From Blasia pusilla (Eukaryota): a DNA stretch of 64,000 nt. Both the position numbers and the translations under genes were made by a program. Position 1 is the first letter of the stretch. Each line of letters starts with the position of its first letter. Positions 930 through 58,900 of this stretch are shown piece by piece. The stretch spans positions 22,196,001-22,260,000 of the forward strand of contig CM114271.1 in NCBI GenBank assembly GCA_050084515.1, given 5' to 3'. Below the pieces are notes generated by a model. That model did not search any database, had not been told where the DNA came from, and saw only the letters and a list, made by a program, of their open reading frames with translations.

Positions 930-3900
930 GAAATTTATACACAACATTTCGAGTGTAATTACCTTTTTCATTGGAATGTGTATCACTACCCGTATCATTA
1001 TATGAATTGAATTCTTTTCTCCTACTCTAGATGATGCAACATATAACTGCCCATGAGAAAGTACAGGTATGGGTAAAACATATTCCAACCTTTCATAAAG
1101 TTTGACCTTGTGATTTATTAATAGTCATAGCAAAAGTTGGACGGATAGGGAATTGGAATCTACGTAAATCAAAAGGCAACCATGAGTAAGAAGCAATCAA
1201 TGGAATATGCAAAATGAAAATTTGATCTCCAATGTTCTTCCATGTAATAATTTCAGCATCAATAATATGTTGCATGAATCCACGCATGATTAGCCGAGTG
1301 TCATTCGCTTGTCCTTTTGCCCAATTCATATTCCGTAAAAGCATAATTTGTGCACCAATCTTCAAACACAAACGATGTGGAGGCAATCCAGAAGGTAAGC
1401 AAGTATCAAGAACTCTGTTGGATAGATATAACTCATTCCCTCATTTGGAACAGAATCAATACTAAGATAAATATGCTCATGTATATAACACAAATTTGTT
1501 AGAAAATATATTCCCAAAAACTTAGTCTAAATTTGTTAAAGTAGACAAAATGAAGTCATTTTCGTTAAGAGTAAGAATAGTAAGAGAAAAAATTAGTACC
1601 TCTCCAGAAAATCGAGACATGACTTCCATATTTATGTCATCAATATCTCTGTTTCTTGGTGTGAGAATGGCCGTATCTCTTAAAAAGTTGATGGCATTAA
1701 ACCTTTGAAGATCATTCTCATGTATCATATGAATAAGATCATTTACATTCTTGCTATGAACAACCATGTTAAACTGCACGGATCATATCTTCTCCCAAAG
1801 AAGTGTGTAATGGCACATGACCCTCTCCAACCTCCAATAACCAATCAGCAAAAGCTTGTTAATCAAAACGCATATGCCCTTCTAAATTTTGAACTCTCAT
1901 GTTGTAGTAAGCTTCATCACCTTTATATGGGACCATAAATTAGATCTTTTTTAAGTGGCTTGGATAATTTTAGGATGATCCCCATGACGAATGATAGGTA
2001 AAACCTTTCGAAAGTCACCACAAAAAAAGGACCTTTCCCCCAAATGGCATGTCCTTGAGGTCATAAGATATCACTCCCATAATATCTTGTAAGGTACGAT
2101 TCACAGCCTCAAATGCACGATGATGAGTCATAGGTGCCTCATCCCATATAGTAAGCGTAGCCTTTTGGATCAAATGTGCTGCATCGCTATTGACAATCAT
2201 ATTGCAAGTGGAGCTTTCATCAACATTTATGGGAATCCTAAAACTTGAGCGTGATGTACGCCCTCCATCTAAGAGTAATGTTGCTATCTCAAATGATGCA
2301 ACAACTAAAGCAATACCTCCCTTACTTCTTACACTTGCAAGGAGAAGATTATATAAGAAAATCTTTCCAGTTCCACCTGGCCCATCTATGAACAACAAAT
2401 TTCTAGAAGGTATAGCATTATGCATCATTTTATGCAATTGATCATGGATAGCATCCCAAATGATCTGTTGTCCATCATTCAAAGATGCCTCTCCACTTCT
2501 AACTTGCTCACATAAGCCATTTTGATCATATAAGAGTGTCTCTTCCTCCAAAAATGTTCGTGAATGAGGGGATTCGAAGTTAGGTTGTGGCATGTCTGGA
2601 AAATTAGACAATCGCTTTCGAAGATCTTGCATATGATAATGTACTTCCAATAATGCAATGTTAATGGTAGGAGATTCAGGTGGGAGATTAGGAATTCATG
2701 TTTTCTGCAAGAGCAACCAATATATATGAAATAATCAAAGCTTACCTCACGTCGTTCATATAATATATCATCTATGAGTGGAGCCAAAAATTGACTCCAT
2801 AGTACATGAGGTCTAGCATGTGTATTATAAGCTAGAATGATGGCAAATAATTGGCGAAGTGAGGGACCGATGCGAATCTCTGAAGCTTCTTGTAAGCAAG
2901 AGAAGGCTTCATTATCATCCTCAAGAAAGTCCCAATTGAATAGAAGCTTCCTTAAAAGTTGGATATACGACTCCATGTACAGTTCTCAAGTGTTCATAGG
3001 AAGTTGCACCTCGAACATGATGAAGAAGTAATCGCAGCCAACGAAGTTCTCCATCACCTGTAGAAACTTATGTAATTGGTAATATCATTTAGTATTATCA
3101 AAAAATCACTCATTTCCTAATATGAATATTTATAAAGTGAGATAAGAAATTCACTTTCATTATAACATAAGCACAATACGACATGTAGTGTTTACTTGGA
3201 TGAGTAAGGTATAAACGTCCAATAGGTTGACCGCACCCATTTCTTTTTCGTATTCTACGAACCGATTCTCTTTTACTCCAATGATAATATAAAGGGAACT
3301 CAAGATATAAATACTCTCAAACCTTTTGATCAAGTTGATTAGTAACAAACCATTGAGCTAAGGGGGTGTCCCTATTTCTTTGTAAAATATTCTCAGGCAT
3401 ATCAGAATCATTGAAGTAAACCGTTTGTGCCTCGGGTAGATGAACAGCCAATCTCATAACACCTGGTTGGTCGGCATGCAAATTAAACTTGAAAAGTTGC
3501 CAACATGCCTCTGAAGAAGAGATATATCTACATACAATTTCATGATTAATTACTTTATAGACTTTGATGTATATCATGTCATTAAAAAAAAAGTCAATTA
3601 GAATGGGAAAGATAATCAAATTGTGTTAAGGGTACCTAGCATCGAGATATTGGTCAGTCTCATCAATGATCTCCATTGTCATGGAGGTATCCATATCTTT
3701 TGAGACCTTAAATGATACAATATGAGATTCCTGATATACGTATTTATATAAGTATTTCACCGTAGAAATATTTTTTGTGATCTCCAAATTAATATGATAA
3801 TCAAAGAGGGTACATAATGAAGGATTATAAGGCACAACCCATCGATTATCCAAGCACTTGATGCACTTCATTGCCTTCTTTCCATCGTCCAATCTAGAGT

Positions 3901-5920
3901 ATGTAACAAAGAACACAATATTAGAAGAGATGAAAGACATACGTAGGATTTACAACCAAAAAAAAGAGAATTTCATATACTTATGGAAACTCATTTTCAT
4001 AGCAAACTAAGAAATTAATAGTTGAAGTACCTTCGATAGATTGGGTAACCATCTTCAATCTCCGAAGTCACATCCGCAAAAGCCTTGGAATACCATTTAA
4101 TACATTTTTTGTTTCCCTATCCATGCAAGGAGCATTTGGATTTAATTATCCGCATGGACCATGAATCATACAATTAGCCATATTAGAATAGAGTCTTGGA
4201 TGCGTGATCAGATTTGGAAGTTCAGCTACAATAATATCATCATAATTAGAAGTGGTATGTGGCTTGTCCCCATGTCAGAGAATAATCAAGACATTGACAT
4301 GAGGTAAGCCTCTTTTTTGAAACTCCACCACATGAATGCATCCCAAAACTCGTCCCAAAATATGCTTCTTCATAATGAATCGTATTAACTCCCTCTTTTT
4401 TTTCTCAAAAACTCTCACAACCAAATCGGGTCGATCTACAACAGTTTGGCCGCGTATAATGCTAACATAATCTCTTCCCACTTAGAATTGTATATCATGG
4501 TCAAAAACAAATCCGGTTTTCCAAAATGCTTCACAATAGCCATGCATCTTGATAAAGTTGATGCATATGACGTGGCCCCCCACTAAAAGAAGAAGGCAAA
4601 ATAATGAGTCTCCCAAACCTTGCCCCATCCATATCGTGTTGATGTAAGGCGTTTTTTACATCTTGATACAATTCAACTCGTAACTCTTTTTGATTTAATT
4701 GAACCCAACATCAACTTTGCATCTCTATAGTTGCATAGAGTTAAACCATGTACTCTTGAGTAAGGTGACCAAATCGAAGTAATCGATTATCATCTTCACC
4801 TCCAAGTCGTGTATGTAGTCGAAAAGAGGCAAATTGCAAGGCTGTTATACACTTTTGATTCCTTATGAAGGTCTCCTCATTTATCTCTCCATCAACTCTA
4901 TCCTCCTCCACTGAGTCATTAGAACATTGTTCATCTCCACCATGCACTATATTATCCCTCGCAGCGGTACTGGTTGTAGTTTCGAGAAAACCCCCAAATG
5001 GTATTCCAGGATGCCATCCAACTTCACCATAAACAAACGACAAGAAAAAGTGTAGCGTAACATATGCTTCATTTAGGTCTAATATACGTCTTGTCCCCCC
5101 TCCATGTAATTGCACAATAATATCACCGCGATCAACACAATCAATTCCATCAATTGGAAAAAATTGGTACAATTTCTGAAGCCAATGGTAACTTGTAACG
5201 TTTTGCCTTAAGACCACCCTTACTTGCCTTTAGGATGATGCACACATTCCGATCACTTGCCGTACTTGCAATGTTACGAAATACTTTAACATAGGGATTA
5301 TGCTCATATAATATCTCTTGTAGCCCTTGTAGGATGTCAAGTCGGAGATCATATGACATAACTATTCCTCGATGCTCCAACTCATTCTCAGTATCATGAA
5401 TGTAGATTTGAGCAAATCTATGATAATCCCCTTCCTCAGGATGTAGTCCTCCAATAGTATGGTACATGCCACCTTGAACCCTAAAGTGTCCGATACCACC
5501 AATTTGCTCTGCCACATGAGCTCCGGTAGAAGCTAATTGCAATGCAGAATTATAAGCCCGAGCATGGGAAAGAAAATGACCACTTTGAGCATCAATACCT
5601 GAAATTAATAATTGCAAGAATGGAGGAGTATTTTTCAAGAGAGGAAGTTGTACTCTTCCATATTCGCAACACATGCCAAAAGGAGAGTTGTGACATCTTG
5701 TCGCTGTCACCTTCTCACATTTCCAATGGAGAGCATGGCACGAAGAACATATTTCAGTCATATTCCCAATATTAAGACGGCCCGTTGTTTGGCTTACAAT
5801 TGATGGAATTCCAAGCTTTTTGACGTCACTTTCTTGGAAGTTTGTAGTCCGTGCAATATTAAGTAACTTTTTGACTCTCACAATCCTCCCAATATTAGTT
5901 GATGTCTGCAAATTTGTCAA
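930..5920 (-). pseudogene. Helitron RepHel (HUH Rep + PIF1 helicase), broken by many frameshifts and stops
   Basis: ORF pieces in the expected order: Cys-rich N-terminus (CSSCHALHW...CC), RPDLVVRVF / VEFQKRGLPH Rep motif, VKYLYKYVY, RYISSSEACW, Walker A GPGGTGK, IWDEAPM, ILTPRN, FAMTINKSQGQTL. Confidence 0.93.
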
Positions 5921-6464
5921 AATAGGAGCATAAGTCCATTCGCTAATGGGTTATCCACTCCATTAAGCATAGAAGGTACGTCCTCAATTCTTGATGGAAG
6001 TGTGGGAGCATCAAATACAACTTCATCTCCTTGATCTCTAGGTAATAGTATCTCCTCTTCAATACTTATGATGTTAGGGACCTCAACCCCATTCCCTCCA
6101 ATATGCAATTCCTCAACCAAAGCAGGCATGGGAGTAGATATGTCAAAAATAGGAACTCTGATATTATTCTCCTCAGTCCTGCATCTACAATGGAATTTGT
6201 AAGTACGACTTAAAGAAATACTTGCAATCAAAAAATCCTAAAGCAAGTTCATAAGGCATTCATATAAGGTTGTATACCTTGGAATATCTTGAATCGGGGT
6301 CTCCACCACAACAATATTTCTATCATCTTCAATTCCTCCAATAATATAAGAAGATCCTACATAATGTTGAAGGGCACACCTTCTTCTTTTATGTTCTCTT
6401 TAGTAGACCCTTCTTTTTTCCTTTCGAAGAGCGTCATTTTGTATACGAATGACACGTTTTCTCT

Positions 6465-13949: not shown

Positions 13950-14129
13950 AATACCTCTTTGCTTCACATGTGATGATCGGGCAGAAAAAAATGTTTTCTC
14001 TTCTACGGGAAACAAGAAAAATATGTATATTACTATTGGAGAGTGCCTTTTTGATTTGCAAACACCTCTTTGCTCAACATGTGATAAACAGGCACCAAGA
14101 AAATGTTTCTTCTTCTATGAGCAGCAAGA

Positions 14130-14221
14130 AAAATATTTTGTGTGCAACATGATTAGTCCCTTCACACCTGTGTCATGCACGGGAGTGAAGGGACTAATCA
14201 TGCTGGACACAAAATAATTTT
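14130..14221. repeat. Long hairpin (about 36-bp arms, 19-nt loop)
   Basis: CATGATTAGTCCCTTCAC...GTGAAGGGACTAATCATG is an 18-bp perfect stem and extends with few mismatches to AAAATATTTTGTGT / ACACAAAATAATTTT. Confidence 0.85.
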
Positions 14222-14499
14222 CAGCAGACCCGTGGGTATGCTAGCTCAAAATCAATTTAAAACGGCACTCCAAAGTCGTGAGATCTAACTATGGAAGATA
14301 AATCTTAGAGGATACGCCTATTCTACTAAGAGCTTGTGAGTCTACGAAGGCTGGGAGGGAGGAAGTAAGAGAGTCTCATTGAATTAAGTTGAATCGAAGA
14401 ATGAGAGAGGTCCACTTGAGTGATTGTGAGTGGCCTCACAAGTGCTCATGTTGAGTTAGTAATTCACGCCAACATGCGTCTCCAAGGTTGTATAGACAT

Positions 14500-25266: not shown

Positions 25267-28200
25267 CTACGTGTTTGTACACGTTGATGAGGCAATGGCT
25301 GCTTCTCTATCAAGTTGGGCTTGTGGGCCCAACTTTGTTTTTCTAGACTTTGCTCTGGGGAATAAAGATAGGTCAGTGAATGAATTTGGGTTTTGCCTAT
25401 CATTCTGGTCTGTCATGGATCTTGTAGATCTTCTTCTACGTCGGGACCAACGTTCAATGTTTGATTGAACTCGTGTAATGGAATTATTGTTCAGGAATCC
25501 ATCTTGAAAACTGGAGAATGGATTACCTGGTTGAGGTGTCAACCCATTTTCAGCTGCTATTTTTGCAGACTCGATCCTTCCACTCAGCTCCTTCAAAGCC
25601 CTTGCAGTTAAAGTAAGAAGGCGAGCATTGTGAACACAGGAAAGTCGTATGCTTGAGAACAAGTCGTCAATTTCTTCAATAGTGGAGTTTGTTACAGGGT
25701 TTGCACAGTCCGATGATAATCGACATCCTGGTGGAATGGTGTCTATGTGCCAACACCAGAGATGGAAAAAAATTAGTTTAGCAGTAGCCACCACTAATAT
25801 CAAATCCCATGTTGAAATATGAACATATTTATGATCTTGGAAGTATTCATGGCCTGCATGTAGAAGTATACATGACCTTATTCTTGAAGTATACATGACC
25901 TGGTTCTAGACCTGATCCTAGAAGTATACATTACTTGATCCATGACGTAAACATGACATGGTCCTAGAAGTAGACATGCCTTGATCCCTGAAGTTTACAT
26001 GACCTGATCCACCAAGTATACATCACTCGATGTTCACTATTGTTATTTACCTCCATTTGGATGCATGTCAAACATCTCAGGTTGGCATGGATCATTCTCC
26101 AATTCCTCATTCGATTGTCGTGTTATGAGCTTGAGATGAGCCATCCCACTCTGTCTTGTTCCTAACCTTGTTCCCAGAATCTTCACCAAATCTGCTTCAT
26201 TGTAATTTTCCTTCAATAAAGAACAATGCATTTTGGCATACTTTTAAAAAAAAGTCAGTATAATATAATACCAATTTTAGTACATATGTAAAGTAATATG
26301 TTCAATTCACTTTGAAAAGAAGGAGAATATAAGAATGTAAGAGGCCCTTACAATATGCTTGCAAATGTTCCCCTTTAGAGACCATGGACAGTCACAATGA
26401 CCCCACTCTGTATCGTAGTTGTAGACTTCATACCATTTATTCTCCAATGTCTGACTCCTAACTCTTGCCATACTCACCTCCCCCCTGGTGCGTATGATCT
26501 CTACATCACTACCAGAAATTGCTTTCCCTTTCAAAACAACGTTGTTTACATATTTTTCATGTGTCGCATTTGTCACAAATCCTCTCCTTTTCAACAAGTG
26601 GACGTGGAAATACCATGCCTCAATGTCATTGATGAGTTTCCAAACTAGGTAGTCCCCTCTTCTCTGTGATAATGTTTTGTGGTCATCATGTAAGATAGCC
26701 TTCATGCTTCCATGATAGTTCTCAATTGCCACATTCCTGTCTTGATTTGCATGAGGATAGTCCCTTGCTGCTTTTACCCACTTTGCTGAAGTCATTGCAC
26801 CAATGAGGAAATGTTAATTCAAATTTGAATGCATAATTGAATGCGACAACCAAACTCAAAGTCAAGAAACAACAATGATACTCACCAATCTTGGGTTCCC
26901 AATATGTTTGTATGTACTTTACAAACTTTGACTCCGCTTGATAGTCTTCATAGAATTTCTCTAGGTCCCTCTTTGCGTCATTCAAAATGACTTGTCGTGT
27001 GTATGTGCCACATCGATTCACATACATGATGTCTCCTAACCTTCGCGACATTTCAGCTCTCATGCCATGACTACGCACCTTTTTCTTCAACTGCTTTAAC
27101 CAGTCATGCCGTACATGCCATAGACATAGAATGATGTGTGCTGTTGGAAATATTGCCCTGTTCAAAGGGTTCCAATCATTTAGTCTGCATTAGAAAAGAT
27201 AGAATCGCTTCTATGTTGGTGGAATGGTTTCCCTTCTTGAGGAAGATTGGTTTCCTACATGTTGGAAAAATAATGAATACAACTTCATATGCATAGCTAA
27301 TCTTTCGCTTAAAGCACTCATACCATAGAAGGATATTGATGTTTGTTGGCGGAAATGATTTTTGCAACGGTGGAATGGTTTCTTCCACCGTGAGAGTAAA
27401 TGTGAGAAGATTATCCTATCCAAATCTGATTAACCCATCATGCCAATTTTCGTTAATGAATACAGAGGAATTTATTCTCACCTTAATGCATTCTCGCTCG
27501 CCAAAGCGTCGTCAACAATGATCGCATTTGGTTCCCAATTCGGTTGGATGACTCTACATTTATCCAAGATAGCTTTCAACCACTTTCCCAAATACACTTC
27601 TTTTGCACTAGATGTGAGAACCAGGCCACGGGTATCCCCGAGTGGTGATCATCAAACACCAACAAAGTATATAGGGAAACTACAAAACATCAATACAAGT
27701 GTTAGTACCATGATTATATGGAATCATTTTTACATGAATGAAAGTAATAAGAAGACTTACTTCACATGAAATATCTCTTCAACAAAATAAGTAAGAGCAA
27801 GTACCCATTGCGATTTGTGCCAAATGTGCTATCCATGCTCAAAGCGCTGCCATGTCCATACTTTACAAGAGCATTCAAGCGCCATTGGCTTTGGAATCCC
27901 AAAATGAATGGATGTGTCTCATCCATGTAAGGCTAAATAAATGAACACCTTTCAGGAAGAATACTCAACAAACAAGCTCAAGGACTCGTTCTCGCTCCTA
28001 GCATATAGAAATGTCTCCTCATTGAATTGTTTTTATGTTTCAGTATATCATGCATTTGCATGAAGTCATCTCAGGTCAAACTCTCTTCAAAGTTGGTATC
28101 CGTCAACGAGCGCTCTTTCAACATCTTTGAATGCTCGGCTTGGATCTGGTGGGGCTTAACCCCCAAGCGAAGCCTCTCTTTCACATAATTCTTTAGATCA

Positions 28201-28900
28201 TCTGAAATCCTAGGAGCAAACATCTTCGGTGTATCTATGCATGCTTTGTCGTCCTTTCCATGGCATGGCTTGTTGGCTTTATCCACGTGAGCTCTATTTT
28301 TGTAGGTGATCTTTGCAACATGCGGAGGAGTGTTGATTTCAAGGACTGTAAAATGACATTGACACCCACGTTTGCAACTATCGCCTCTACTTATGATTTG
28401 TCCTCGGCCTACTACCTCTTCCACTTTTGGGGACAATGGACAGACTGTAAACACAACAAAAGGAGCGATGTGAAATTAACACACTAAAACCATTTCTAAC
28501 TGAATGGTCATCCACTCTCCTCAATAATCAAAGTTTGAAATATGTGAATGGATAGGAGAAGATAGTGGGCACCTATGCACAATCTCTGATGCATTTGGCG
28601 CAGATCGGTTGGGCCATACGCACAATAGTATATTGTGTACAATGGACCCCCTCCATCCATGTCTCTGGAGCAGCCCTTGCCCAATCTTGACATTCCTTTC
28701 CGAATGTTGTTGGGTTCCTTCCATCGCCATGCCCTCGCCAAGAATGAGATCATGTAATCTTTCCCAAGGTATGTATGCTACATGATCGTCATCCCAGAAA
28801 GCTTGTTGGTGAGATAAGTCCCTGGAGGAATATCGGTTTGAACAAAAATCTTGTTCATGGATAATATCCTCCTTGTTAAAGAGCTTCCACTTGCAAGCAT
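25267..28900 (-). pseudogene. Multi-exon Mutator-like (MULE) DDE transposase with SWIM zinc finger; at least one frameshift
   Basis: SCKRGCQCHF (FAR1/WRKY-GCM1-like), MDSTFGTN (~27836), GIPVAWF (frameshift follows), IIVDDA, CLWHVR (CxxH motif), NVAIENYH and SWIM CDCPWSLKGNICKH, in the canonical order with GT/AG introns. Confidence 0.88.
25840..26030. repeat. ~23-bp minisatellite (GAAGTATACATGACCTGATCCTA-like, about 7-8 degenerate units)
   Basis: Visible recurrence of GAAGTxxACATGxC between 25840 and 26030. Confidence 0.8.
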
Positions 28901-30076: not shown

Positions 30077-31990
30077 CTAATTCCCTGCACTCCTCGCAAG
30101 AGGTGTCAAACCTATTCGTGTGGACTTCACGTTCTTGGCCTTGGTCACTTGTGAGTGAGTGCCAAGTTTAGGTACCTCACTTCTAATGTTGTCATTGATA
30201 TCATTCAACAACGTCTTGCCCAAATTTTTCTTCAAAGCTCTCAATTCTCTAGAGGATAGTTTTTTCTTGAAGGGTGTCATCATCAAGCATCTTGAGATCC
30301 TCCAATGTTTCCGGATTTGCAAAAGGAATCTGCACGTCTTCATGAATAGGGGTGCGAAATGCAGAGCCGGTTGTGTTGACCAAATGTGGATCGTCTGTAA
30401 CCCCTTCATGATGGATGGCTGCCCCATTCTCACCACATGGAGTGTGTGGAATGGGTTCCATAGGTGTATCACCTCGACACTGTGCATACACACTTTCGGC
30501 TCCCCCCTCTGGTGGAATGAATTCCGCTGAAGTTAGGTCAAGTCCCGGGAGGTGGAGTGGCATCCGCATTGATAGAATCCCCACCTGGTGGAATGGGTTC
30601 CATCATTTGATTCTCTCTCGGCCGTGGAGGGGGATCCGCCCTTGAGCCTCCCCACTTGGTGGAATGGGTTCCACCATTTGATTCTCTCTTGGCGGTGGAG
30701 TGGGTTTCACCATTGAGCCTCCCCACTTGGTGGAATGGGTTCCACCAATTCACTCTCTCTCGGGATGGGAGAGATCTTTTCGATCGTGTCTGGGGACTCG
30801 GCCGCTTTGTAACAATCTTCCCCGCCAATTTTGGTGTCTCGTTCCTTTGGCCCTTTGAACGCTGTGGTACTTTGCAATTAGAAGCCTTACCCGCCTCTTT
30901 CTTTTTATCAGTTATGACCTTACCAGCGTCGTCGCCTAGCGATGACGCGGGTGGCAAGGGTTGAAATCATCGCTATCCGATTCAAGACTTATGTAAGTCT
31001 CCACCCGTCTCCTCCGCTCTCACTTTCAAGCCCTGTTTTCCCTTCTTACACCAGGTGTCTTTGTCATGTTTCCTTTGACTTGGAACATATGCACCAGCTC
31101 TCTCCTCACAAATATCTTTTGCTTTTTTGGAATTTCTAGTGGCCAACCATTCCTCATATTGTTGCTTGGCCATAAACTCAGAGTACTTGGCTTGATCTCG
31201 CTCAAGCCAACCCATTAGATTTTGTTTCTTGCGTGCTATCCACGCAACACTCGCTTGACTTGTGCCTCTCTTTCGACAAAAACTCGGTAGGTAGCTCCTG
31301 TAGAGACACAACGTTGCCTTTTTGAACTACTCCCCACAACTTCTTAACCATCTCCAGATGTGTGAAGTAACCCTTACCCCTCCCTATCAAGTCCTTAGAA
31401 CCTTGTAGACTTGCTCTATCAATGGCTGCCAAGCAACCATATACTACATGCTCCATCATGGAGTTACTATTTTGGCAATCATGAACTCTCACCAAGCACT
31501 CACGGTATTGTTTCCTGTCTAGGAGGCCATCCCAATCCCGAATATGCAAGGAATTCACCAAATTACACTCCATCAAAGCCACCAGTGATGGCTTCTTCCC
31601 TAGTATCGGGATATGAGGACTCCGCTGCATAGACAACCACCTCTCCGAGTGGAATTGAAGCAACCTGTACATTTTCTCCCTCCTGATTTTAGCCTCCCTC
31701 CTATGAGCATCCCCGGATTTCCTAAGGAGCTCTCTCTCTCTCTGGGCATCTGTCACTTCTCTCTTACGACCCATCACTGGGTCGTTGGCGCGCCTACCTG
31801 GATTTTCTAGTGGGACTAGCAATGCCTCGTCCAAGTCAGGGTGGTTTTTAATCAAGTGCTGATTGCACTTGGTTTTATTTTTGGCCTTTAGGATGCGATT
31901 ACAAAGCATGCACATCCACTTTTCCCCATCCTCTATGTATCTCCAATATGTGTTCTCCCCAAGAGCAACACCCCACACAACTCGATTCAT
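30077..31990 (-). pseudogene. Transposon accessory gene with N-terminal BED-type zinc finger, frameshifted
   Basis: YWRYIEDGEKWMCMLCNRILKAKNKTKCNQHLIKNH matches the BED pattern W..(F)...C..C...HL...H. It continues through overlapping frames 31311-30982, 30957-30538, 30584-30249 and 30493-30077, on the same strand as and upstream of the MULE gene. Confidence 0.6.
30580..30765. repeat. 71-bp tandem repeat (about 2.5 units)
   Basis: CCCACxTGGTGGAATGGGTTCCAxCA starts at 30580, 30651 and 30722. Confidence 0.9.
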
Positions 31991-33278
31991 ACTGGTGGCT
32001 GCCACGATTGAACTCTGACGGAAGATATACCGAGACCTACGACTGCCAAACTGACACCACACAAGCTCCTCCATAAGCACTTCAACAATAGAGTAGTACT
32101 CAAACATCAGGCCTGATAAGAAATCCATGCTATGAAGGAGAAAGAAATAGACCAAACATACCAGTTCCCAACTGCCCTTGCTTCCCTCGAGTTTGTATTC
32201 TCAGCGATCCTTCAGCCTCTGATCCGAACTACCCCCTGGAGTTTTCAAGTACACGAGTGTTAACAAAGCATAATCACAATCTTACCCTCACATTTCCAGG
32301 TGAATAGAAGCTTACTGTACTCAGCCACTGCTTCCGGTCTGATTTCTACCACTCATGCATTACACTTCGCGTAGACCTCGTGTTAAGAAATGGTATCCAG
32401 GGCAAAGAAGTCCATGAGATTCCATACAGGAAAGGTGGGCATAACTGCTCAAGAGTCCTCTTTGTTGGAAAAGAAGTCTTCACTCACTCTCCAAGTACGA
32501 GCTAACACGAAGATACTCACGGTGGCCACCTAAACTAAGGGCGCCCCGCTCAGATATTTTATTAGATGGAACAGAACAACGCTGAACGCCATGTCTTAGT
32601 CACTACAAATCTTATGCCAATCAATGACAACGGTGATACACATTCTACTTACGGCCGTCACTTAACTGTCATTTCTTGTAACGATCGAGAATGAAATGAC
32701 TGCATACAACATTGAACAATCTTTCTCATTTCGCACCTTCGAGCTAGCCCTTTCCATCAAGCGTTTTTATTGAAGTTCGTTTTCCATCTTCATAGGCTGA
32801 AGAGTATCTCAACATCGAGACTCGGAGTTTCATGGCATCAGTCAAACGTGCTGCTGCTGTTTGCTTGCTGCTTATGACATTCGGAGAGCGATATTGCCAA
32901 AGCCCGGAGCACTAATTGCTCCGTGCTTAGGGGCTCAGAGGCAAGACAGGTGAGTGAGCGATGCACCAGAGAAACTTGCAAAGTGAATGTCGATCTGACA
33001 GCAAACCCCTCCCTAAATGCGAGAGCGACACAAACCGAGCGCGATTTCACAACAAATTCTTGGAGCCCAATACTCCAGCCACAACTCGTGACGGACGGAT
33101 CGTGTCTATTTCAAAGCTTTCTCGCTGATCCCTGGCCGCCGGTCATGAGGTATTCATCGGATACATGAATAGGCTCTTTCTGGAATTGAATTTTGTGAGA
33201 GCGGAGTTCTCGGAGCAGAGTGAGGGAGAGGGAAGTTCAGTCTAGAATTGGTAGCGAAGAGCAGATACCGACAGGACG

Positions 33279-33785
33279 ATGGAACAAGGCCGTGGCCTCA
33301 TGAATTCGACCACGCATTTGGCAGACGCGCCCATGGGAGGACTGGAGATGAACAATGGGATGCGATTACCTTTCTTTGGGGTAGCGGGTGACATTCTTTG
33401 TTCCAGGCTTGGGAGATTTAAGACCGCAACGCAATACGCCCAAATTGTGTTGGCCTCGCTGGTCATCGCCATCCGCACGAATGGTCGTCGTATTTCGGGC
33501 GTCATTTGTTGAGAAAGGCCATGGATCAACTGTGAAAGACTCTGCGCCCCGCCCGCCTCACTTTCTCCCTGTCGCACTCCGGGTGTTTCTTTCGATTCTT
33601 TTCGCGATCAATGCTACAACGGGTACTTCCTCATGTTGATGGCCATGTCTTTCAACAATGGAGTGTTTATCGCGATCATCTTAGGTCTCACGTTCTCGCA
33701 TTTTGTCCGCTTGATCGTCGAAAATTGTCTTCAGAAGTCGGACGTAACGTTTAACCTTTCCATTTTCCATTCCCCCGGTGTGTAG
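33279..33785 (+). pseudogene. COPT: COPT/Ctr copper transporter relic 1 (frameshifted)
   Basis: Met-rich N-terminus, TFLWGS.VT.LFQAWE..TATQYA, HEW, then LRVFLSILFAINATT-YFLMLMAMSFNNGVFIAIILGLTFSHF. YFLMLMAM starts at 33624 and carries the Ctr MxxxM motif. Confidence 0.88.
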
Positions 33786-33795
33786 TCGGAGCTGT

Positions 33796-34075
33796 CTACT
33801 CAGAAATGCACGAGACAACGAACCCTGGAGGCCCCGTAACGTTGCAAAGAATGAAGGCCATCAGCGGAAGGTGCAATGTGCGAAGGAAGCCATTCCTTCC
33901 TTCGTTCGAAAGCCATTCCACGAGTGGTCCCAAAAAAAACGGCTCCGAATGGGTTTAGGGCTTCGGATGGAAGGAGGTCATTGGACGATGTCAGAGGCCA
34001 TGGGTAAACAGCGGGGATCATGTACATGGTATGGTCCCCATGTAAGTTTATGTACATTACCATGCCATGGGGATG
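33796..34075 (-). pseudogene. COPT: COPT/Ctr copper transporter relic 2 (more decayed)
   Basis: Across frameshifts: HPHGMVMYIN-TWGP...LFT-WPLTSS...AVFFLGPLVEWLSN...GFLRTLH. This parallels plant COPT MMMHMTFFWG...LFSGWPGTSS...VFFLAVLTEWL. Confidence 0.6.
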
Positions 34076-35214
34076 TCTACGACGGATATCCGTGGCGGTC
34101 TGGTCGACACGGTATCCCGGAGAAGGGTCGATTGACGGGGGCGGAGAGAGCACGTCGGGATAATCCTGGGGTTAGCAATTAGTTAAGGACTTGCAGGTGG
34201 GTTAGGAGATAACGGGTAGGTTAGGGCGCTTGGAGGTTCCCAATTAGTGGGAGCCCCTAAGCCCGGAGCAATTAGTGCTCCGGGCTTTGGCAATATCGCT
34301 CTCCATTCCAGTGCGGCCAAACTGTTCGTAGAGCAGATGAAGATCAAGACATGCTACGGTTCGTACAGTTCAGTGCAATAAGAATTAGATGGACTACATT
34401 ATCCAAAATCAACTGCATCGAAGCATATATCTCTCTCTAGGTCGGAGTTGGCGTCGGAATCGGTCCATTTTTTTCTCCTCTTGGACGGCTCTCGAGTCCT
34501 CTACATGCGCACGCGTAGGCCTCGCTCAAACTGTCGATATCAAAAGGGCAACCTCAGAAGCAGCAAGATCATTATGGTTCCATATCCATGCCCCTTCTCT
34601 TATCTCTGACCAATTTCACTTCCTGTCCGCCACCGCTACTTCGCCCCTACTAAACCTACTTAGCTCTCTTTAACCTCTTTACTCACTCCTCCGTGCACGC
34701 ACAGCTGTCTGGTCCGGCTCGCTGTACCGGATGACGCTGGCCTCCTGCGACTGTACCCTTCCGGAGGATCGGACAAAAGGACGGACCGACTGCGCCCGCG
34801 GCCCCTCGTCGGAAGACGGTAACAGTAGGCTTATCCGTGTCAGGCGACCGCCGTCACTATTGGCGGCCGACGACCACAGTTACTGACCTACTTCTACGTA
34901 GTTCATTACAGGCATGACGTGTATTACTCCCTTACGACGGAAGACGTGTTGATCTAATCGGATGAGTTTTAGAATTTTCGGTTTCTCAAACACCGGCAAA
35001 ATATCGTCGGGATATTGGTGTCTCCTCTGACTTAGTATCAAATTAACCTACCGGAATTAGAAAATTTTCAAATTATACATACTCGAAATATATCGGTTGT
35101 TTGGAAAACTTCGTTGCTTTATTTTGGTTACTATGCTAGTAATAGAATATGGTTAAGCTCCTGGTAATTGAAAAGATTGTTAAGTCCTTAAGCTCCTCTA
35201 ATAACTCCTCTTAA

Positions 35215-44322: not shown

Positions 44323-45573
44323 TCAATGGTGTAATTCGGGATTTAGACAATCAAAGACCGGTCGAGTGTCCTCGCTGCCACTCCTGCCCGGGCAGTCGCT
44401 TTGCAACGGAGGCAAGCCACAGTTGAACTGGAAACAGAGCGTCACATCCGATGGAAAGCTCATACCCGGTAGCAAATTAGACAATCCGATCAGGTAGTTG
44501 TGCTGCAGGTACAGAGTCTCAACCACCGCCGTCTGCAAATTGGCGGCGTAAACCGGAGGCACCATCCCGCTGAAGCGATTGTCGTTCAGATACAACGTCT
44601 TCACTCGAGCCAGAGCCGTGGGCACTTCCCCGGAGAAGTTGTTGTAGCTGAGGTCCACCACGGGGATGCTGCACGGCGTGGGAATCGCCAGATTTCCCGA
44701 TAGCTTGTTGCGATCCAGCAGCAGGTATTGCAGCGGGAAAGTGAACACCTCCACGGGCAAGTACCCCGTCAGCTCGTTGGAGCTCACGTCCAGATACGTT
44801 AGGCTGCGTAGACCTGATAAGCGCTCGGCCCCGCCGGTTATCCTGTTGTTCGCGAGACTGAGATATTCCAGACCCGCTGGGAGCAACGGTAACCTGCCGG
44901 TGAGCTCGTTCGAGGTGAGGTCCAGATGCCTCAGGGAGTACGCCGACGAGAAATCCGGTACGGCGTCGGTCAGCTGATTCCCGGCCAGCGACAGCGTCGA
45001 GAGCGACGGCAGCTGGCCGAAGCCCGAGGGGATCTGTCCGGACAGGTAGTTCCCGGTTAAAATGACGCTCTGGAGGCGATTGAGATACGACACGGACCAG
45101 GGAATGCCGCCGGTGAACCGGTTCCCGAAGAGACCCAAGAACTGCAGCCTCCACAGAGAGCCCAACGTCGAGGGAATGGGACCGCCGACGATTCCGGGCA
45201 CAATTGAGAACTGAGACAGAGCCGTCAGGTTTCCGACGGCAGGAGACAGGGAGCCACTGAGCCCAGGAGATCCAGCCGTTTGTTCACCGATGTATAGCAA
45301 AACCACGCGAGTGACGCCGTCGACCTGATCGCACTGAACCCCCTCGAACGAACAAGGATCCTGTGCGAAATTCCACGAAGAGAAGAAGTTGGATCCGGGA
45401 AGATCGTCCAAATTGTTCCGAATCTCCCTCAGCGCATCTACGTCGGTCGAAAGCAACTGCGCTGTGCATGGAGACCACGCAGCTGTGCCCAACAGAACCC
45501 AAATCAACACACGGTGAAAAGCAGAGATGACGCCGGATTTCCTGTCGCAAGAGCGGAAAACCTGGCGTGCCAT
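44323..45573 (-). CDS. Single-exon secreted leucine-rich repeat protein (plant eLRR, no TM or kinase domain), 416 aa
   Basis: ATG at 45573 (the track ORF starts upstream at a non-ATG codon). Hydrophobic signal-like stretch, LRRNT LDDLPGSNFFSSWNFAQDPCSFEGVQC, about 10 LxxLxLxxNxLxGxIP repeats and a Cys-containing C-cap. Confidence 0.95.
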   Translation of the reverse strand: MARQVFRSCDRKSGVISAFHRVLIWVLLGTAAWSPCTAQLLSTDVDALREIRNNLDDLPGSNFFSSWNFAQDPCSFEGVQCDQVDGVTRVVLLYIGEQTAGSPGLSGSLSPAVGNLTALSQFSIVPGIVGGPIPSTLGSLWRLQFLGLFGNRFTGGIPWSVSYLNRLQSVILTGNYLSGQIPSGFGQLPSLSTLSLAGNQLTDAVPDFSSAYSLRHLDLTSNELTGRLPLLPAGLEYLSLANNRITGGAERLSGLRSLTYLDVSSNELTGYLPVEVFTFPLQYLLLDRNKLSGNLAIPTPCSIPVVDLSYNNFSGEVPTALARVKTLYLNDNRFSGMVPPVYAANLQTAVVETLYLQHNYLIGLSNLLPGMSFPSDVTLCFQFNCGLPPLQSDCPGRSGSEDTRPVFDCLNPELHH

Positions 45574-52916: not shown

Positions 52917-53498
52917 TGGCAAATGGCATCCAATGGGATTTTCTCGTGCTTTTATCGTCTCGGGCATTATCCTCGTGGAACTCGGGACGATTCTATTTGT
53001 GAAACAATTCACGCGACATTCCACTTTGGACCCGTCCCGTGCCGATGGGGTTCCAACCATTTTCAAATTTTTCAGACGGGAATGGAATATTTTTTAGTTA
53101 CATTTGAAAATTGCATGCAGTGGAGTTTCCCTCCATACCCTCTTTTGCTATTTCTCTAATTTCTATAGATTATAATGGACTAGTTTAAGCCCATAATTTA
53201 AATTTACTCTCATAGTTCTCAAGAGTACTATTTTAAATTAATTTCAAACTATCTTATCAGTTTAGAAGACGAGCAATCTAATTGGCTGAAAGGGACAAGT
53301 ATACAAAGTTGTCGTGCGCATACACATCGCTACACGACATACATCGTTGTCATCGAACACACACATACACACGCACGCTCCCATGCTAACTCATGGCATC
53401 CAAACAGCGAGACAAGGAGTACCAAAATATCTGCAATAAATCAAGTAGATCTCACATCACATCTCTCTCAACATCTTACACCAAGCTCTCCATGATGT

Positions 53499-53500
<2 letters not shown>

Positions 53501-53558
<58 letters not shown>
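53501..53558. repeat. (TC)29 microsatellite
   Basis: Direct read; it produces the ERERER/SLSLSL ORF artefacts. Confidence 0.98.
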
Positions 53559-53560
<2 letters not shown>

Positions 53561-53699
53561 TGGCTTGGGTTACACACACAAGGCAAGCAAAACCATAGCT
53601 CTGCCGCCTCTTGCCAAGAGGTTCTACAAAGAGAGAATGAGCTCTCAAGCTCTCTCTCCTGGTGGTATACCCCCTTCCCTCTCCCAAGCCCTCTCCTCG

Positions 53700-56235
53700 A
53701 TAACCTATGCTTGTAGGTCATCCATACTCGAGTATGAATTGGCTCAAACCTTTTCTTATATTTTGTCACAAATCCCATAGCTTCATCTAAAATGTAGGCC
53801 TCGGCCATACATGCTTCTGGGCGGGCTTTTGACCTCACATATTTCTTCATAACTCCCATATACCTTTCAAAAGGGTACATCCATCTACATGCTACTGGCC
53901 CACACATGTCTAGCTCCTCCACTAGATGAATCAGCAGATGGGTCATTACATTAAAAAAGGCTAGAGGAAAATATATATCGAGCAAACACATGGTGATAGC
54001 TACGTCTTCATGAAGTTGGGGATAATATGTACGGTCCCAAACTTTTTGTGAAAGATTCCTCATAACTCTACATAATCTCATAATCGTGGTCCTCACATCT
54101 TTGCTCATGAGATCTCGAAGACAGAAAGATAGAATTTGTTGGATAAATACATGGTGGTCATGAGACTTCATGTTCCCTAATCTCTTCTTCACCACAAGTT
54201 TTTTCAACTCACCACTATAGCCAGTTGGCACTTTCAAAGATTCAACCCTTCCCAAGAAAATGACCATTTCACTAGCAGAGAGAACATAGTTTGCTACAAG
54301 TTTGACAATACTTCCACTTCTAGAAGGGTGAGGTTTTAGCCATAAGTGGGATCTAATTTGTCTCTTTTCCATATCTCGCCTCACTTTCACTGTATCATGT
54401 ATCCCAAACAGTGTTTTCACAACATTTTCAGAAATATTCTTCTCTACATGCATGACGTCTAGGGTATGTCGAATCAATAAATGCTATTGAATTACACATA
54501 GTTAAGGAAAAATCCAGTGTACTTGGATAAAATAAAATAAAATCTTCCTTACATAATGCAAAAACTTATAATCAAGTAGGATACTTGCCAATAGGGCAAT
54601 GAAAAAAGGATTCCTCTACGCTTAACTCCAATTTTCTTGTAAGGGTCATCAGGACCGTCTTCTCTACCCCCTCTCTGATGGTTTTTTTTTTAATACTCTG
54701 CCCATCGAATATGCTCCATTGCTTTAATCCTTGTGGGAGGTGGCCTAGACTCTCCTTTCCCATTGAAAAGTGATCCATACTTCCTCCCTTGCCAATGATG
54801 GTTTTGTTTGAGATAACGACGATGACCAAGAAATATTGGTTTGCCACATTATTTAGAGAAGTAGGAATCTACTTGAGGCCTACACACTTTGCATGCTAGC
54901 TTTACATCATGGCTTTGTCGTGAGATCAACCCATATGCAAGGTAGTCATTGATGGTCCACAAAATCAAGGCTTTGAAGGTGAATTTCAAATGTCCATCCA
55001 ATTTCCTCACATCATGGAATTCAACACCTTCCCACAACTTTGCAAACTCCTCTACCAAGGGAGCCAAGAAAGTGTCAATGTTCTCACTATTGACACTCTC
55101 TTTTCCAAGGATGATCAAAGGCAATTGGATAAAATAAAAAAAATTTGCAACCAAGGAGGTAAATTTAATTCACTAATAACACTGGCCAAGTTGACCATGA
55201 ACTTGCCTTCTCCGAGAACGGATTCACCCCATCTAATGCTAATCCAAATCTACAATTTCTCTTCTCACTCCTAAAATCAGGATATATATGGTCTACATGC
55301 TTCTAAGCCCTAGAGTGTGTTGTATGTAGAACTAAACCATCTTTGCTTTGGTTAAGAGGACCCCAACACATCAACTCAGACAAGATGTTGGATCTGAACA
55401 TGCGTCGCAATCTAGGAATGAGTGGGAAATGACGAAGAACTTTGCAAGGTACCAATGACTTTCCAACTTGTCTAAATATTTCTACATAGCACTTTGGACA
55501 TTGATTAAGAGCGTGTAAATCCCCTCGGAATAATACGCAACCACGTGGACAAGCATGTATGGTATCATAACTCAACCCCAATTTCACCATGAGTTTCTTA
55601 GCTACATGATGACTTTGCGACGCATTGTTTTCGAGTGGAAAGACATGCTTCCCAAGAAACTTCAAAAGTTCATCTATAGCTACATTGGGTAAATTCTGTG
55701 CTCCTGCAATATTAAAAAGGTGCATAACAAATGCCAACATTTATACTCTAGCACTAGAATAGAGAGGCTTACATGCATCAGCCATCTCGTTATCTATATT
55801 TTTAGGGTCTTCATCCATGTCAACCTGACCATCGTTCCCCTCTCTTTCCCCCCTATCAGATCTACCTTCTTCGTCATGAAGATCATCGTATTGGGAAAAA
55901 ACTTCATTCAACATTTTGTGCACATCAACTTTGTTGTCTACGCCTTCTTGGTATGCTAGAGGTTGAGATTTGGTGAAATTTGCGGGCTCATCATGGGTCT
56001 GGATATTCACAGGTTTAGCAAAATTCATGACACTGGCTTAATGAACTATTCTCTCATGCTCATCTTGTTTCAACAACTCATCATCAGATGAGTCCCATTC
56101 TTCTCTACTTTTCCATATCCCACACAAAGAGAAACCTTGGTTTTTTTGTAAATGTTCCTCCACTTTAGGCAAGGAAATACTTCTTTGTCCTTTGCATACA
56201 CTACAAGGACACCTAACTCGCTTTATACCATCCAT
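53700..56235 (-). pseudogene. CACTA/En-Spm TnpD transposase relic
   Basis: RCPCSVC (transposase-associated domain), IHACPRGCVLF, LRHFPLIPRLRRMF, IDTFLAPLVEE, WTINDYLAYG, LDVMHVEKN, MKSHDHHV, FFNVMTHLLIHL, RWMYPFERYM. Fragmented by stops and frameshifts. Confidence 0.93.
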
Positions 56236-56599
56236 TCTAGCCCGAGCCTCCTCTCAGCGCCAAAGTTTGAAGTCATGTCATGAAATTCTATCCGAATGAT
56301 TAAGTGGTTGTCTACCCTTGCTGGCGCTCAACGTTTGGCTCATGGTGATCTTGGCTAGTCACTAGGGGATGCAGAGCTCCTAATGAACTACAAAATAGAT
56401 TTTGATTAGCTCTATTGATCATATGGAGTTTTATGATTTCAATGACTTAAACATTCATCAATTTCAGAGACTCTAAGCTCCACTTGTCAACTACAACACC
56501 ACAAGATACATACATGATCCAGTGAGTTTCAACGATTGTTATGTCTCACATCTACAAACATGAAATGAGTCTACTCCTTATATAAGCATAATGTATTTT

Positions 56600-58900
56600 T
56601 GAAAAACAAACTTACTTCTTAGGAGACCAATCCTTAAGATTTCTGTGCAACCACTCGTCCTTCAAATTTTGTACGCTTAGTATAGTCTGCACATACTTTT
56701 TCCCAAGTACATTCCTGCCAATAAGCTAATGCTTTGGCCCCTTCAGGCCATCTTTGTTCCTCCTCTAGAGCAGCAATAGCTCCTTGCCTAAAGTGGAGGA
56801 ACGTTTCTTCTTCAGACTCTTCTTCTTGCTTCCTCAAATTTTCTTCAAATTGCACAATTTTCTCCAACTCAATCTCCTCCTCTTCTAGAGCCAATCGAAT
56901 TGTAGACTTTTGAGGCTGATTACTCAAAGTCTTTCCATTTACACTCTTTTCCATATGTCTTCATCCTCCTGTCTGAACATGAAACATGGTTATCACCTTA
57001 CCATCCAAATCAGTTAACACCAGCACCGTACCCTATAAGGGGCCCATCTCTACTTTATAAACCTATTTGCAATTGGGATATGTAAAAATCCTAGCGTGGA
57101 GAATCCTAATATTTTTAAAAGGCAAAAAGGAAGGAGCCACACAACCTCCACAACAAATTCCAATACCTGCATGTATACTGCAAAATCAATATGGGATCTA
57201 CGATGATACATAGAAGGCTTGTTTCAAGTTGTGGATGTTAAGGATTGTCACTCGCTGGCTGAACGGTTTAAGAGTTGGATGTATTCGTGGAACTATAAAC
57301 CATGGCTAGGAAAATTGGTCAAGATACCAAACCCCTAGTGGAAGAGAAGCAGAAAAGGTTTTAAGAGTTGGATATGTATATATGTTGAATGGACATGGAC
57401 TCTTCTGCACCCTGGCCAGGAAACTAGTGTGGATTGGCTGGTTGGGCTCGTGGGTATGATGGCAGTGAGGAATCTATGGAGTCATCAACCTGATCAACAT
57501 AATGAGTCCCCACTGGATGACTATGTTGAATGCACGTGAAATTATGAATCATAGTCAGAGAATTGGAGTGATGGGCTTGTAGGTTCCATGTAAATGTTGG
57601 CAAAGAAGATGGAGGTGTCAGCTTGATCTAGATTAAACCCATAGCAAAGCACTGGGCAAGGAGTCACAGTTGAACAACATGGAAGAAGCCATGAAAATAA
57701 GAATAACAGTAGGATGAAAACACAACTAAAACTCTTGTGAACTTGCCTTCTTTACCTTCTTCACGTGCAAAACACATTAGATGTGTAGCCAGTCCAAGTA
57801 ACTATGAAGTATATACAGTGTCAACTGCATGCTCTAGATCAACTACGTGTTATACTTATAAAATAGAGAGAGCAAAAGTATATTTTCAGTTCACTAAGAA
57901 ACATAAATGCGGATTTTGAATTCATTTGTAATATTTATATTTGCAATTGCTCAAAGCTGCTGCCCTGAAAGCATATGACGAGTGCATATTTAATCTTGAA
58001 AGCACTCCATCAACAAGTATTGTAGAAGTTGACTCTCTATTAAAGCTGGCTCTGTGAAAGCCGCTTTCTTCGCTTTTCGCCCTTCCTCCCTAACGGGAAG
58101 AGAGCGCCTGTCGGCCTTCAGAGGAGAAAATACACTCTCTCAAAGCGAAGGCCAAAGCTAATCAGCAACGTACATGTACTTTTGAATGACTCCATTGACT
58201 ATTGTCTATACAAGGAAATAACTCAGCAACAAACATCAAAATCAATTACTTACAATGTTCTTCTCTCTCCTCTCATTGAGTGAAGGTTGCTTCCTTTTTG
58301 GCTTTTTCTTCAAAGCATTTATCTTGTTGTTCATAAGCTCCAAAACTTTAACATCTTGGTTACTTGTCTTAATTCTAACACCAGAAAGCATGAAAAAAAT
58401 ACGATCAATTGTACTCTTCTTGATCACCTCCACATTGCTCCCGACATCATCAATAAAAAGAGGACTAAAAAATAACCTACAGAATCCCCTTCTAAAGCCA
58501 TATGAAGATCTCTTGGATTTTCTTTTGATTCTAACGCCAAGGGAAGATTCACATCGTGGAAACATATGGGAGAGAAGCTGATATAGTTGGAACTACCACT
58601 TCTGGATGAGTACTAGTGGTGTTTTCAGGCACCACATTAGTGATCTTTGAAAATATTGCCATGATATGAGAAATATTCTCCTTGATATCAACAACATCCA
58701 TTTTTTTATGCACTTTCTTTCTCCATGGCATCTATCCTATGGGTCAAAGTTTGTCGTAGAACTCTACATTGAAAAACATGTGCATGCATCAATCAATAAT
58801 CTTGAAAGCCAATATTAAATCCCAATCTCATGTGCAAAACCCCCAAGAGATACCATTGCTAGAGGCAGGTCAACCGTCACCATCAATGGTCAATTGTCAC
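56600..58900 (-). mobile_element. Probable second (accessory) gene region of the CACTA element, degenerate and multi-exon
   Basis: Coiled-coil/charged ORF pieces (56634-56954, 58242-58731) with splice-like borders on the same strand, directly upstream of TnpD. Confidence 0.4.

Follow-up and report, generated by a model that had tools for sequence, protein, structure and literature searches.

Pack-type elements, which combine terminal inverted repeats (TIRs) and a target site duplication (TSD) with a host-gene interior and no transposase, have been reported for the MULE, CACTA, hAT, PIF, and Mariner superfamilies in rice, maize, and Arabidopsis (PMC8903248; PMC6379663). Accounts of how TIR transposons capture genes deal almost exclusively with flowering plants, and with five superfamilies only. 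A term search of a 2026 review of gene capture gave no match for Sola, 4-bp, bryophyte, or liverwort (PMC13317346), and our literature searches for Pack-type elements in Marchantia or TIR elements in liverworts returned general reviews only.

Here we analyzed a 64,000-nt stretch of the genome of the liverwort Blasia pusilla (assembly GCA_050084515.1, contig CM114271.1, positions 22,196,001 to 22,260,000; hereafter the window, with coordinates counted from its first nucleotide), in which a sequence-only reading had proposed a Pack-type transposon carrying two convergent relics of copper transporter (COPT) genes. In our view, the element at 32883–34304 is best explained as a copy of a multi-copy, non-autonomous, cut-and-paste TIR transposon family of this liverwort, Pack-type and carrying one apparently dead COPT passenger; we give this reading a probability of about three in four. 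The element is ordinary in kind and unusually placed, and it holds one COPT passenger, not two.

The element and its copper transporter passenger

The element spans 1,422 bp and occurs once in the window. It is bounded by two 54-nt arms, the left TIR at 32883–32936 (+ strand) and the right TIR at 34251–34304 (− strand), that are complementary at 53 of 54 positions (98%), are spaced 1,314 nt apart, and each include a 15-nt palindrome. The inverted repeat cannot be extended beyond the outer ends of the arms. When up to three mismatches were allowed, the outer 30 nt of the TIR were found at two sites only in the window, compared to 0.00 expected from 100 shuffles, and BLASTN of the element against the window detected no second related piece. 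TIR patterns likewise found no match in metagenome and genome contig collections, which are not expected to contain liverwort DNA. The termini read GGAGAG...CTCTCC. Flush with the outer edge of both arms, the tetranucleotide ATTC can be read directly at 32879–32882 and again, identically, at 34305–34308; four flanking nucleotides would agree by chance with a probability of approximately 1/256, and we treat the repeat as a putative TSD. No direct repeat longer than 4 nt is flush with the element ends, the 8–11-nt flanks being mismatched. The near-perfect 54-bp TIRs of the sequence-only reading are confirmed as a unique pair in the window, and its ATTC duplication was found again, for this one insertion.

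No transposase family was matched by Pfam among the ORFs (open reading frames) tested from the element, in line with the earlier statement that it encodes none. Lacking one, it must be moved in trans, probably by an enzyme encoded elsewhere that would have made the 4-bp ATTC duplication on insertion. The left subterminal arm (32937–33080, + strand) has no recognizable coding content, and the two ORFs that overlap it, 32878–33168 (+) and 32838–33110 (−), gave no Pfam matches.

The interior of the element holds a broken, intronless COPT/Ctr-like reading frame at 33279–33785 on the + strand, identified both by Pfam and by frameshift-tolerant profile alignment. The Pfam family Ctr (PF04145) matched the frame at 33513–33785 with 34.1 bits (cut-off 25.3; E = 4.9e-8), over the last 30 profile positions only. 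An exhaustive search of 1.84 billion proteins with the COPT frame gave four matches, two of which are plant COPTs (57% and 46% identical, each across some 30 residues); the other two are repetitive, unrelated proteins and were rejected. A word-index protein search with the same frame returned two candidates, neither of which scored. For a more complete view of the frame, we used a profile of 149 positions, seeded by one COPT as query and derived from 120 COPT5-like proteins, all from angiosperms (the 120 listed among 394 matches). A plain hmmsearch of six-frame translations recovered only the piece spanning the second and third transmembrane segments (TM2–TM3) at 33621–33707, with 26.7 bits. 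With a local profile-versus-DNA aligner that permits frame changes, written for this analysis, the alignment reached 72.7 bits, extending over 33365–33707 and profile positions 5–130 of 149 with five frame changes. The background of 84 other 1,422-bp pieces of the window, scored on both strands, had a mean of 15.0 bits, a standard deviation of 2.2, and a maximum of 22.8. The N-terminal part alone (33250–33500) scored 26.3 bits, above the highest of 246 background pieces (22.0 bits), whereas the loop part alone showed no excess over background.

The frame begins with an ATG at 33279, continues through a Met-rich leader with no intron, and closes with a final stop at 33783–33785; read from that ATG, it meets an in-frame stop at 33510–33512. 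TM2 retains MLMAM, and in TM3 the profile's G..vG reads G-L-T-F-S, so that the second G is replaced by S. These we take to be the MxxxM and GxxxG motifs of TM2 and TM3, with positions from the profile consensus. Judged from its sequence, the + strand frame is a nearly full-length copy of a COPT gene and appears dead in the window, given its five frame changes, in-frame stop, and altered TM3. The + strand relic that had been placed at 33279–33785 is therefore borne out, and the Ctr hidden Markov model match to the interior on this strand exceeds the gathering score.

Other copies of the element were evident in contigs from four public sequencing runs of the same organism (X1, X2, X6, and X7), which we aligned to the window at 80% likeness. 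These are Logan contigs, from which rare variants are dropped, so that absence of the window's version from them proves nothing. No RNA run was listed as a source of the sequence, and as an RNA origin of X6 and X7 is a guess, we base nothing about expression on them. The window's own left junction is present: a 112-nt X1 contig spans it (32807–32918) with 0 differences. At the other end, the contigs match the window precisely as far as position 34304, beyond which they run into a minimum of three different flanks, beginning CGCG (X2), TTTT (X6), and GATG (X7). This exact stop with differing continuations indicates that the terminus is real and that the family resides at several loci; the element appears to be multi-copy in the same organism. 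The longest view comes from a 2,149-nt X6 contig that matches 33078–34304 (59 substitutions and 36 gap letters) before entering 764 nt of other flank. Since it joins the COPT sequence, the right arm, and the TIR to a different flank, a COPT-bearing copy must exist at a second locus.

The contigs also differ in the modules they contain. Those of X2, X6, and X7 diverge from the window left of 33078, and contigs of X1 and X2 join 33080 directly to 33771 (sides of 20–23 nt), so that a 690-bp module appears to be missing; in one X1 contig, the joint instead links 33080 with 33867. The 690-bp module (33081–33770, + strand) comprises about 200 bp of upstream sequence and nearly the whole reading frame. 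Furthermore, the outer ~36 nt of the TIR, as far as 32918, are common to other elements with a different interior, and loose ends at 32918 (X2) and at the mirror site 34269 (X1) continue into the same unlike sequence. Together, these observations suggest a modular family made up of a left arm, the COPT module, and a right arm.

In the reading that we prefer, a 690-bp piece of host DNA, consisting of a COPT/Ctr upstream region and almost the whole intronless frame, would lie between a left arm of 198 bp and a right arm of 534 bp (TIRs included). The presence of a host gene piece inside a TIR element makes the element Pack-type, that is, gene-carrying; the earlier description of it as non-autonomous, bounded by TIRs, and derived internally from a host gene is supported in this respect. 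The matching flank repeats further indicate that it moved after acquiring the gene. As for the capture itself, printed models would offer either repair-linked copying or an aberrant excision that mobilizes the DNA between two neighboring elements.

Superfamily affiliation

The main superfamilies of TIR transposons can be told apart by their duplications and termini. MULEs are described with TSDs of 7–12 bp, hAT elements with TSDs of 8 bp and TIRs of 5–27 bp, CACTA elements with 3-bp TSDs and CACTA ends, PIF elements with TTA/TAA, Mariner elements with TA, and Ginger elements with TSDs of 4–6 bp and TG..CA ends (PMC10741241). Sola elements, which are found in the moss Physcomitrella patens, have 4-bp TSDs and TIRs of 11–1,124 bp (PMC10741241); those of Sola2 have AT-rich TSDs, namely AWWT, ATAT, AAAT, and ATTT (PMC3627910). 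Under the Repbase rule, assignment to a family requires termini that can be aligned over positions 1–11 (PMC4455052).

We compared the element with each of these descriptions in turn. In place of the 7–12-bp duplication of Mutator elements and Pack-MULEs, its flanks share only four nucleotides and do not match over 8–11 nt. Its ends, GGAGAG...CTCTCC, are unlike the CACTA/CACTG...TAGTG/CAGTG of CACTA elements. Its 8-nt flanks differ and its TIR is 54 nt long, which sets it apart from hAT. The duplication is ATTC and not the TTA/TAA of PIF/Harbinger elements, and the right flanks of other copies begin CGCG, TTTT, and GATG. There is no TA duplication as in Tc1/Mariner elements, the flanks reading ..ATTC|GG and CC|ATTC.., and more generally none of the flanks past 34304 in other copies begins with TA, TTA/TAA, or TTAA. 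The termini are GG...CC where Ginger elements have TG...CA, even though a TSD length of 4–6 bp would by itself fit. The 4-bp TSD of Sola is matched by ATTC on both sides (n = 1).

The element consequently lacks the tested hallmarks of the five superfamilies reported as Pack-type, and what it has in common with Sola is TSD length, seen in one insertion. The claim that it fits neither Pack-MULE nor Pack-CACTA was upheld by the absence of a 7–12-bp TSD and of CACTA/CACTG ends. The same reading had correctly named Pack-MULEs and Pack-CACTA elements as gene capturers, but its list was incomplete, as Pack-type hAT, PIF, and Mariner elements are also in print (PMC8903248).

Within the reading of a non-autonomous Pack-type family, it is tentatively possible that the element belongs to Sola, as a "Pack-Sola" moved by the DDD transposase of a full-length Sola element elsewhere. 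Its 4-bp flank repeat agrees with this, as do the TSD and TIR lengths described for Sola and the occurrence of Sola in P. patens (PMC10741241), and ATTC, with A or T at three of four positions, is compatible with the AT-rich TSDs of Sola2 (PMC3627910). Against it, one TSD has been seen, and the flanks of other copies past 34304 (CGCG, TTTT, and GATG) are not uniformly AT-rich. No Sola transposase was seen either, and Pfam scans could not show one, as Pfam has no Sola model (PMC5751038). We hence regard the match to Sola as the fit of one feature (a 4-bp TSD together with ends that are neither TG/CA nor CACTA and a target that is not TA, TWA, or TTAA) and not as demonstrated membership.

Divergence of the cargo and competing readings

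The differences between the window and the read-derived copies are unevenly distributed. The figures that follow count the differences listed, beyond which many more substitutions and indels exist. Compared to a 914-nt X1 contig covering 32894–33800, 21 of the 26 listed substitutions and all six listed one-base insertions (33363, 33382, 33495, 33529, 33620, and 33715) fall within a 353-bp stretch of the COPT frame, 33363–33715, whereas the adjoining 310 bp (33053–33362) show no listed difference (Fisher p = 1.4e-5). The six extra bases are present in all four runs. Two of the indel sites, 33382 and 33620, coincide with frame changes in the profile alignment, and in X6 so do 33399 and 33419. 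The 21 substitutions are strand-asymmetric, with 11 being T in the window and C in the reads and only one being A in the window and G in the reads. The stretch occurs in at least two versions other than that of the window, one in X1, X2, and X7 and another in X6, and 13 of the 21 differences are common to both.

Applying the listed differences to the window sequence raised the profile score from 72.7 to 96.7 bits (X1-type) or 98.8 bits (X6-type) and reduced the frame changes from five to two. The frame from the ATG at 33279 then stays open for 78 codons (X1-type) or 37 codons (X6-type), compared to 77 in the window. The contrast between clean ends and heavily frameshifted cargo had been taken as a sign that the element kept moving long after capture. 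That argument is not supported: the divergence is confined to the COPT frame, the read copies fit the profile better, and clean ends beside decayed cargo are thus not evidence of long mobility. From the sequences compared, the decay appears local to the window copy or to its assembly, and it would provide no clock for the family. Such a pattern may arise from gene conversion, from mosaic contig paths, or from local assembly error.

Gene conversion is a possible, if improbable, origin of this pattern. In such an event, the COPT stretch of the window copy or of its sisters would have been overwritten from a homologue that shares only the coding region, either the native COPT gene or a decayed copy. 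The sharp bounds of the divergence point this way, with 21 of 26 listed substitutions packed into 353 bp next to 310 bp in which none is listed, and so does the existence of at least two non-window versions that hold 13 of 21 differences in common. On the other hand, no donor sequence is available, an identical picture could result if contigs followed mosaic paths in a de Bruijn graph, and the asymmetry of 11 T-to-C against one A-to-G difference is left unexplained by conversion.

The frameshifts and substitutions in 33363–33715 could instead be local errors of assembly or polishing in a stretch that is repeated and rich in paralogues, the true copy being more intact or even intact; this we consider unlikely. 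The extra base is present at all six sites in X1, X2, X6, and X7, and the window version is listed for none of these runs. The restriction of differences to the COPT frame (p = 1.4e-5, with none listed in 33053–33362), the perfect 112-nt match of X1 across the window's left junction, and the higher profile score with fewer frame changes once the listed differences are applied are all consistent with such errors. However, 21 substitutions in about 300 bp, mostly transitions, go far beyond normal consensus error, and a 416-codon leucine-rich repeat (LRR) gene elsewhere in the window is intact. As noted above, the window version could be missing from Logan contigs simply through the dropping of rare variants. 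Two frame changes also persist after the listed differences are applied, leaving an open frame of only 78 or 37 codons on those differences.

A more far-reaching scenario, which we find doubtful, would be that a Sola-related superfamily, or one new to land plants, spread a whole COPT gene with its upstream region to several loci, with some copies near-intact and putatively expressed and the window copy a decayed or converted sibling. If this were true, the transposon would be amplifying a working metal-uptake gene instead of shuffling dead fragments.

We also examined whether the right arm (33771–34250) is a second COPT relic, as had been claimed for the minus strand at 34075–33796. Of the two convergent relics proposed, the + strand copy stands and this one finds no support. 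The right arm contains ORFs of 123 aa (−) and 144 aa (+) without a family match, and four minus-strand frames gave no Pfam match at E ≤ 1. Against the COPT profile, the right arm scored 11.7 bits, a value that 77% of 258 background pieces equal or exceed; under two laxer penalty sets, 58% and 55% of background pieces scored as high. Over the whole element, the best minus-strand alignment reached 12.6 bits, which is under the background mean, and was located outside the proposed relic. BLASTP against the 120 COPTs, a tiny database, gave only short matches, of which the best covered 6 residues (E = 0.42). In a protein atlas, the 123-aa minus-strand ORF had no usable match and the 144-aa plus-strand ORF reached at best 0.84 (MORN-like clusters), under the 0.9 level for a lead.

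The case for an older COPT fragment, with a Met-rich N-terminus and the first transmembrane segment (TM1), captured tail to tail with the first, comes from motifs. The minus-strand translations contain, in the correct order, a Met/His-rich stretch (HPHGMVMY..HGDHTMYM), the residues FFW or FFLG located at a T8 run, and a segment that is weakly and partly hydrophobic, and the best right-arm alignment, although sub-threshold, stops at profile position 40, the end of TM1. This resemblance cannot be told from chance. The absence of Pfam matches in all four frames, the background-level profile score, also under the two laxer penalty sets, and the lack of a usable BLASTP or atlas match all speak against a second relic. 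Part of the right arm is also the most repeated part of the family, as expected of backbone. We therefore judge a second relic to be quite unlikely, and regard the element as having a single COPT-derived segment, with the right arm being backbone or unidentifiable sequence. Within this arm, the summed depth of X1 and X2 contigs over 33777–33938 is 2–9 times as high as elsewhere in the element, and this part may belong to a more abundant repeat.

It is similarly improbable that the element belongs to a superfamily with 3-bp TSDs, either CACTA/CMC-like or PIF/Harbinger-like, with TTC as the true duplication and the fourth base a coincidence. Four identical flank bases are seen, and one extra matching base has a 1-in-4 chance (p ~0.25). 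Many PIF/Tourist ends start with GG, as does the TIR here. Nevertheless, the ends are neither CACTA nor CACTG, the flank is neither TTA nor TAA, and none of the three other right flanks given above starts with either trinucleotide; TTA/TAA is the TSD of 52–81% of PIF elements (PMC8903248). Finally, that the locus is an immobile native COPT pseudogene enclosed by chance by two unrelated solo repeats is already disfavored and scarcely credible, even if the window has one copy only and no empty site was seen. The two repeats face each other in inverted orientation, agree at 53/54 positions, and have identical 4-nt flanks, and in an X6 contig the COPT module, the right arm, and the TIR end adjoin another flank.

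The reading of a mobile, multi-copy family with one COPT passenger has points against it as well. Its TSD length derives from one insertion, for which a 3-bp duplication plus one chance base (p = 0.25) would suffice. The joints that define the modules are short-sided (20–26 nt), were aligned at 80% likeness, and could be repeat-derived; the module-less form could be either the backbone before capture or a later internal deletion. No complete second copy with both flanks was present among the contigs, and no autonomous partner, donor COPT gene, or empty site was found in the window or the contigs. A joint across the whole element, as would mark an empty site, was not among the joints listed, and the contigs cover no part of 34344–34800; neither of these counts as evidence. 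Some of the frameshifts may be assembly errors, and a profile made from angiosperm COPT5-like proteins only could under-score a relic of another COPT subtype.

Surroundings of the element and comparison with known systems

The insertion interrupts an ORF starting MASVKRAAAVCLLLMTF (32832–32882, and 34309 onwards) that is signal-peptide-like. With the element and one ATTC removed, this ORF would stay open for about 43 further codons, which may be chance.

Elsewhere in the window, the neighborhood is rich in transposon remains, including PIF1 helicase, SWIM, zf-BED, and DUF4218 domains. A 332-aa ORF at 31202–32200 (−), 680 bp left of the element, matches the BED zinc finger weakly (E = 5e-4), falling just short of the Pfam cut-off, and ORFs at 26307–28475 (−) contain a SWIM zinc finger (E = 3.5e-4), a domain that MULE transposases have too; neither locus shares sequence with the element. 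ORFs at 2015–5950 (−), split over several frames, encode a PIF1-like helicase domain (E = 7e-39) as found in Helitron Rep/Hel genes. An ORF at 53476–55740 (−) carries DUF4218 (E = 5e-33), which we take to be common in CACTA-type transposon proteins, and its translation closes in an alternating Arg/Glu run. Two further repeats were recorded: a 45-nt hairpin repeat with a 5-nt loop (14128–14222; 89%) and, at 56150–56806, an inverted pair of 35 nt (86%) that is separated by 587 nt and has no obvious flank duplication. Rfam gave no match in the window.

The intact gene mentioned above is a single-exon LRR gene (LRRNT_2 plus LRRs) of 416 codons at 44326–45573 (−). Its protein is 69–70% identical to those of Marchantia paleacea and Riccia fluitans and 61–62% identical to those of Riccia sorocarpa and Calypogeia fissa, compared to at most 48% for seed-plant proteins among the listed matches that were read, which by itself points to a liverwort other than these four species.

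A gene-carrying liverwort element with a 4-bp duplication would widen the known range of gene capture to include bryophytes and, probably, a further lineage of transposases. The copies recovered from reads, namely those with the COPT piece, those without it, and those with other neighbors, would form a natural series for studying capture. If the COPT frame were still intact in some of them, the transposon would be multiplying a complete nutrient-transporter gene. On present evidence, the passenger of the window copy is dead, and we see in the finding a good lead rather than a discovery.

Three described systems provide points of comparison. Sola elements resemble the element in their 4-bp target duplications, in their variable TIR length, and in being reported from a bryophyte, the moss P. 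patens (PMC10741241), but nothing so far ties it to a Sola (DDD) transposase or to Sola-like termini. In amoebae, Sola2 elements are known to have acquired Fanzor genes (PMC3627910); gene capture by Sola in plants was not found in the literature searched.

The passenger resembles plant COPT/Ctr proteins (PF04145; the COPT5-like P0001 and P0003 and 118 others in our profile) in its Met-rich N-terminus, its M-x-TF-x-WG region, TM1, and variable loop. It also resembles them in its TM2–TM3 region, with MxxxM (here MLMAM) and SFNxGVF, and in having no intron. It departs from them in its five frame changes, in-frame stop, and the serine at the second G of the TM3 GxxxG, in reaching only about 57–59% identity, over the best 29–30 residues, and in lying inside a transposon.

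The closest likeness is to Pack-TYPE elements (Pack-MULE, Pack-CACTA, and Pack-hAT/-PIF/-Mariner; PMC6379663, PMC8903248), with which the element shares TIRs, a TSD, the lack of a transposase, and a host-gene interior. As in those groups, family members appear to have common termini and differing internal modules, and relocation followed capture. It differs from them in that its 4-bp flank repeat and GGAGAG...CTCTCC ends fall outside the five reported superfamilies. Its host is a liverwort, whereas a term search of the 2022 survey (PMC8903248) found neither Marchantia nor Physcomitrella. Finally, where Pack-TYPE elements carry a few exon fragments, the cargo here is nearly a whole single-exon gene together with its upstream sequence.

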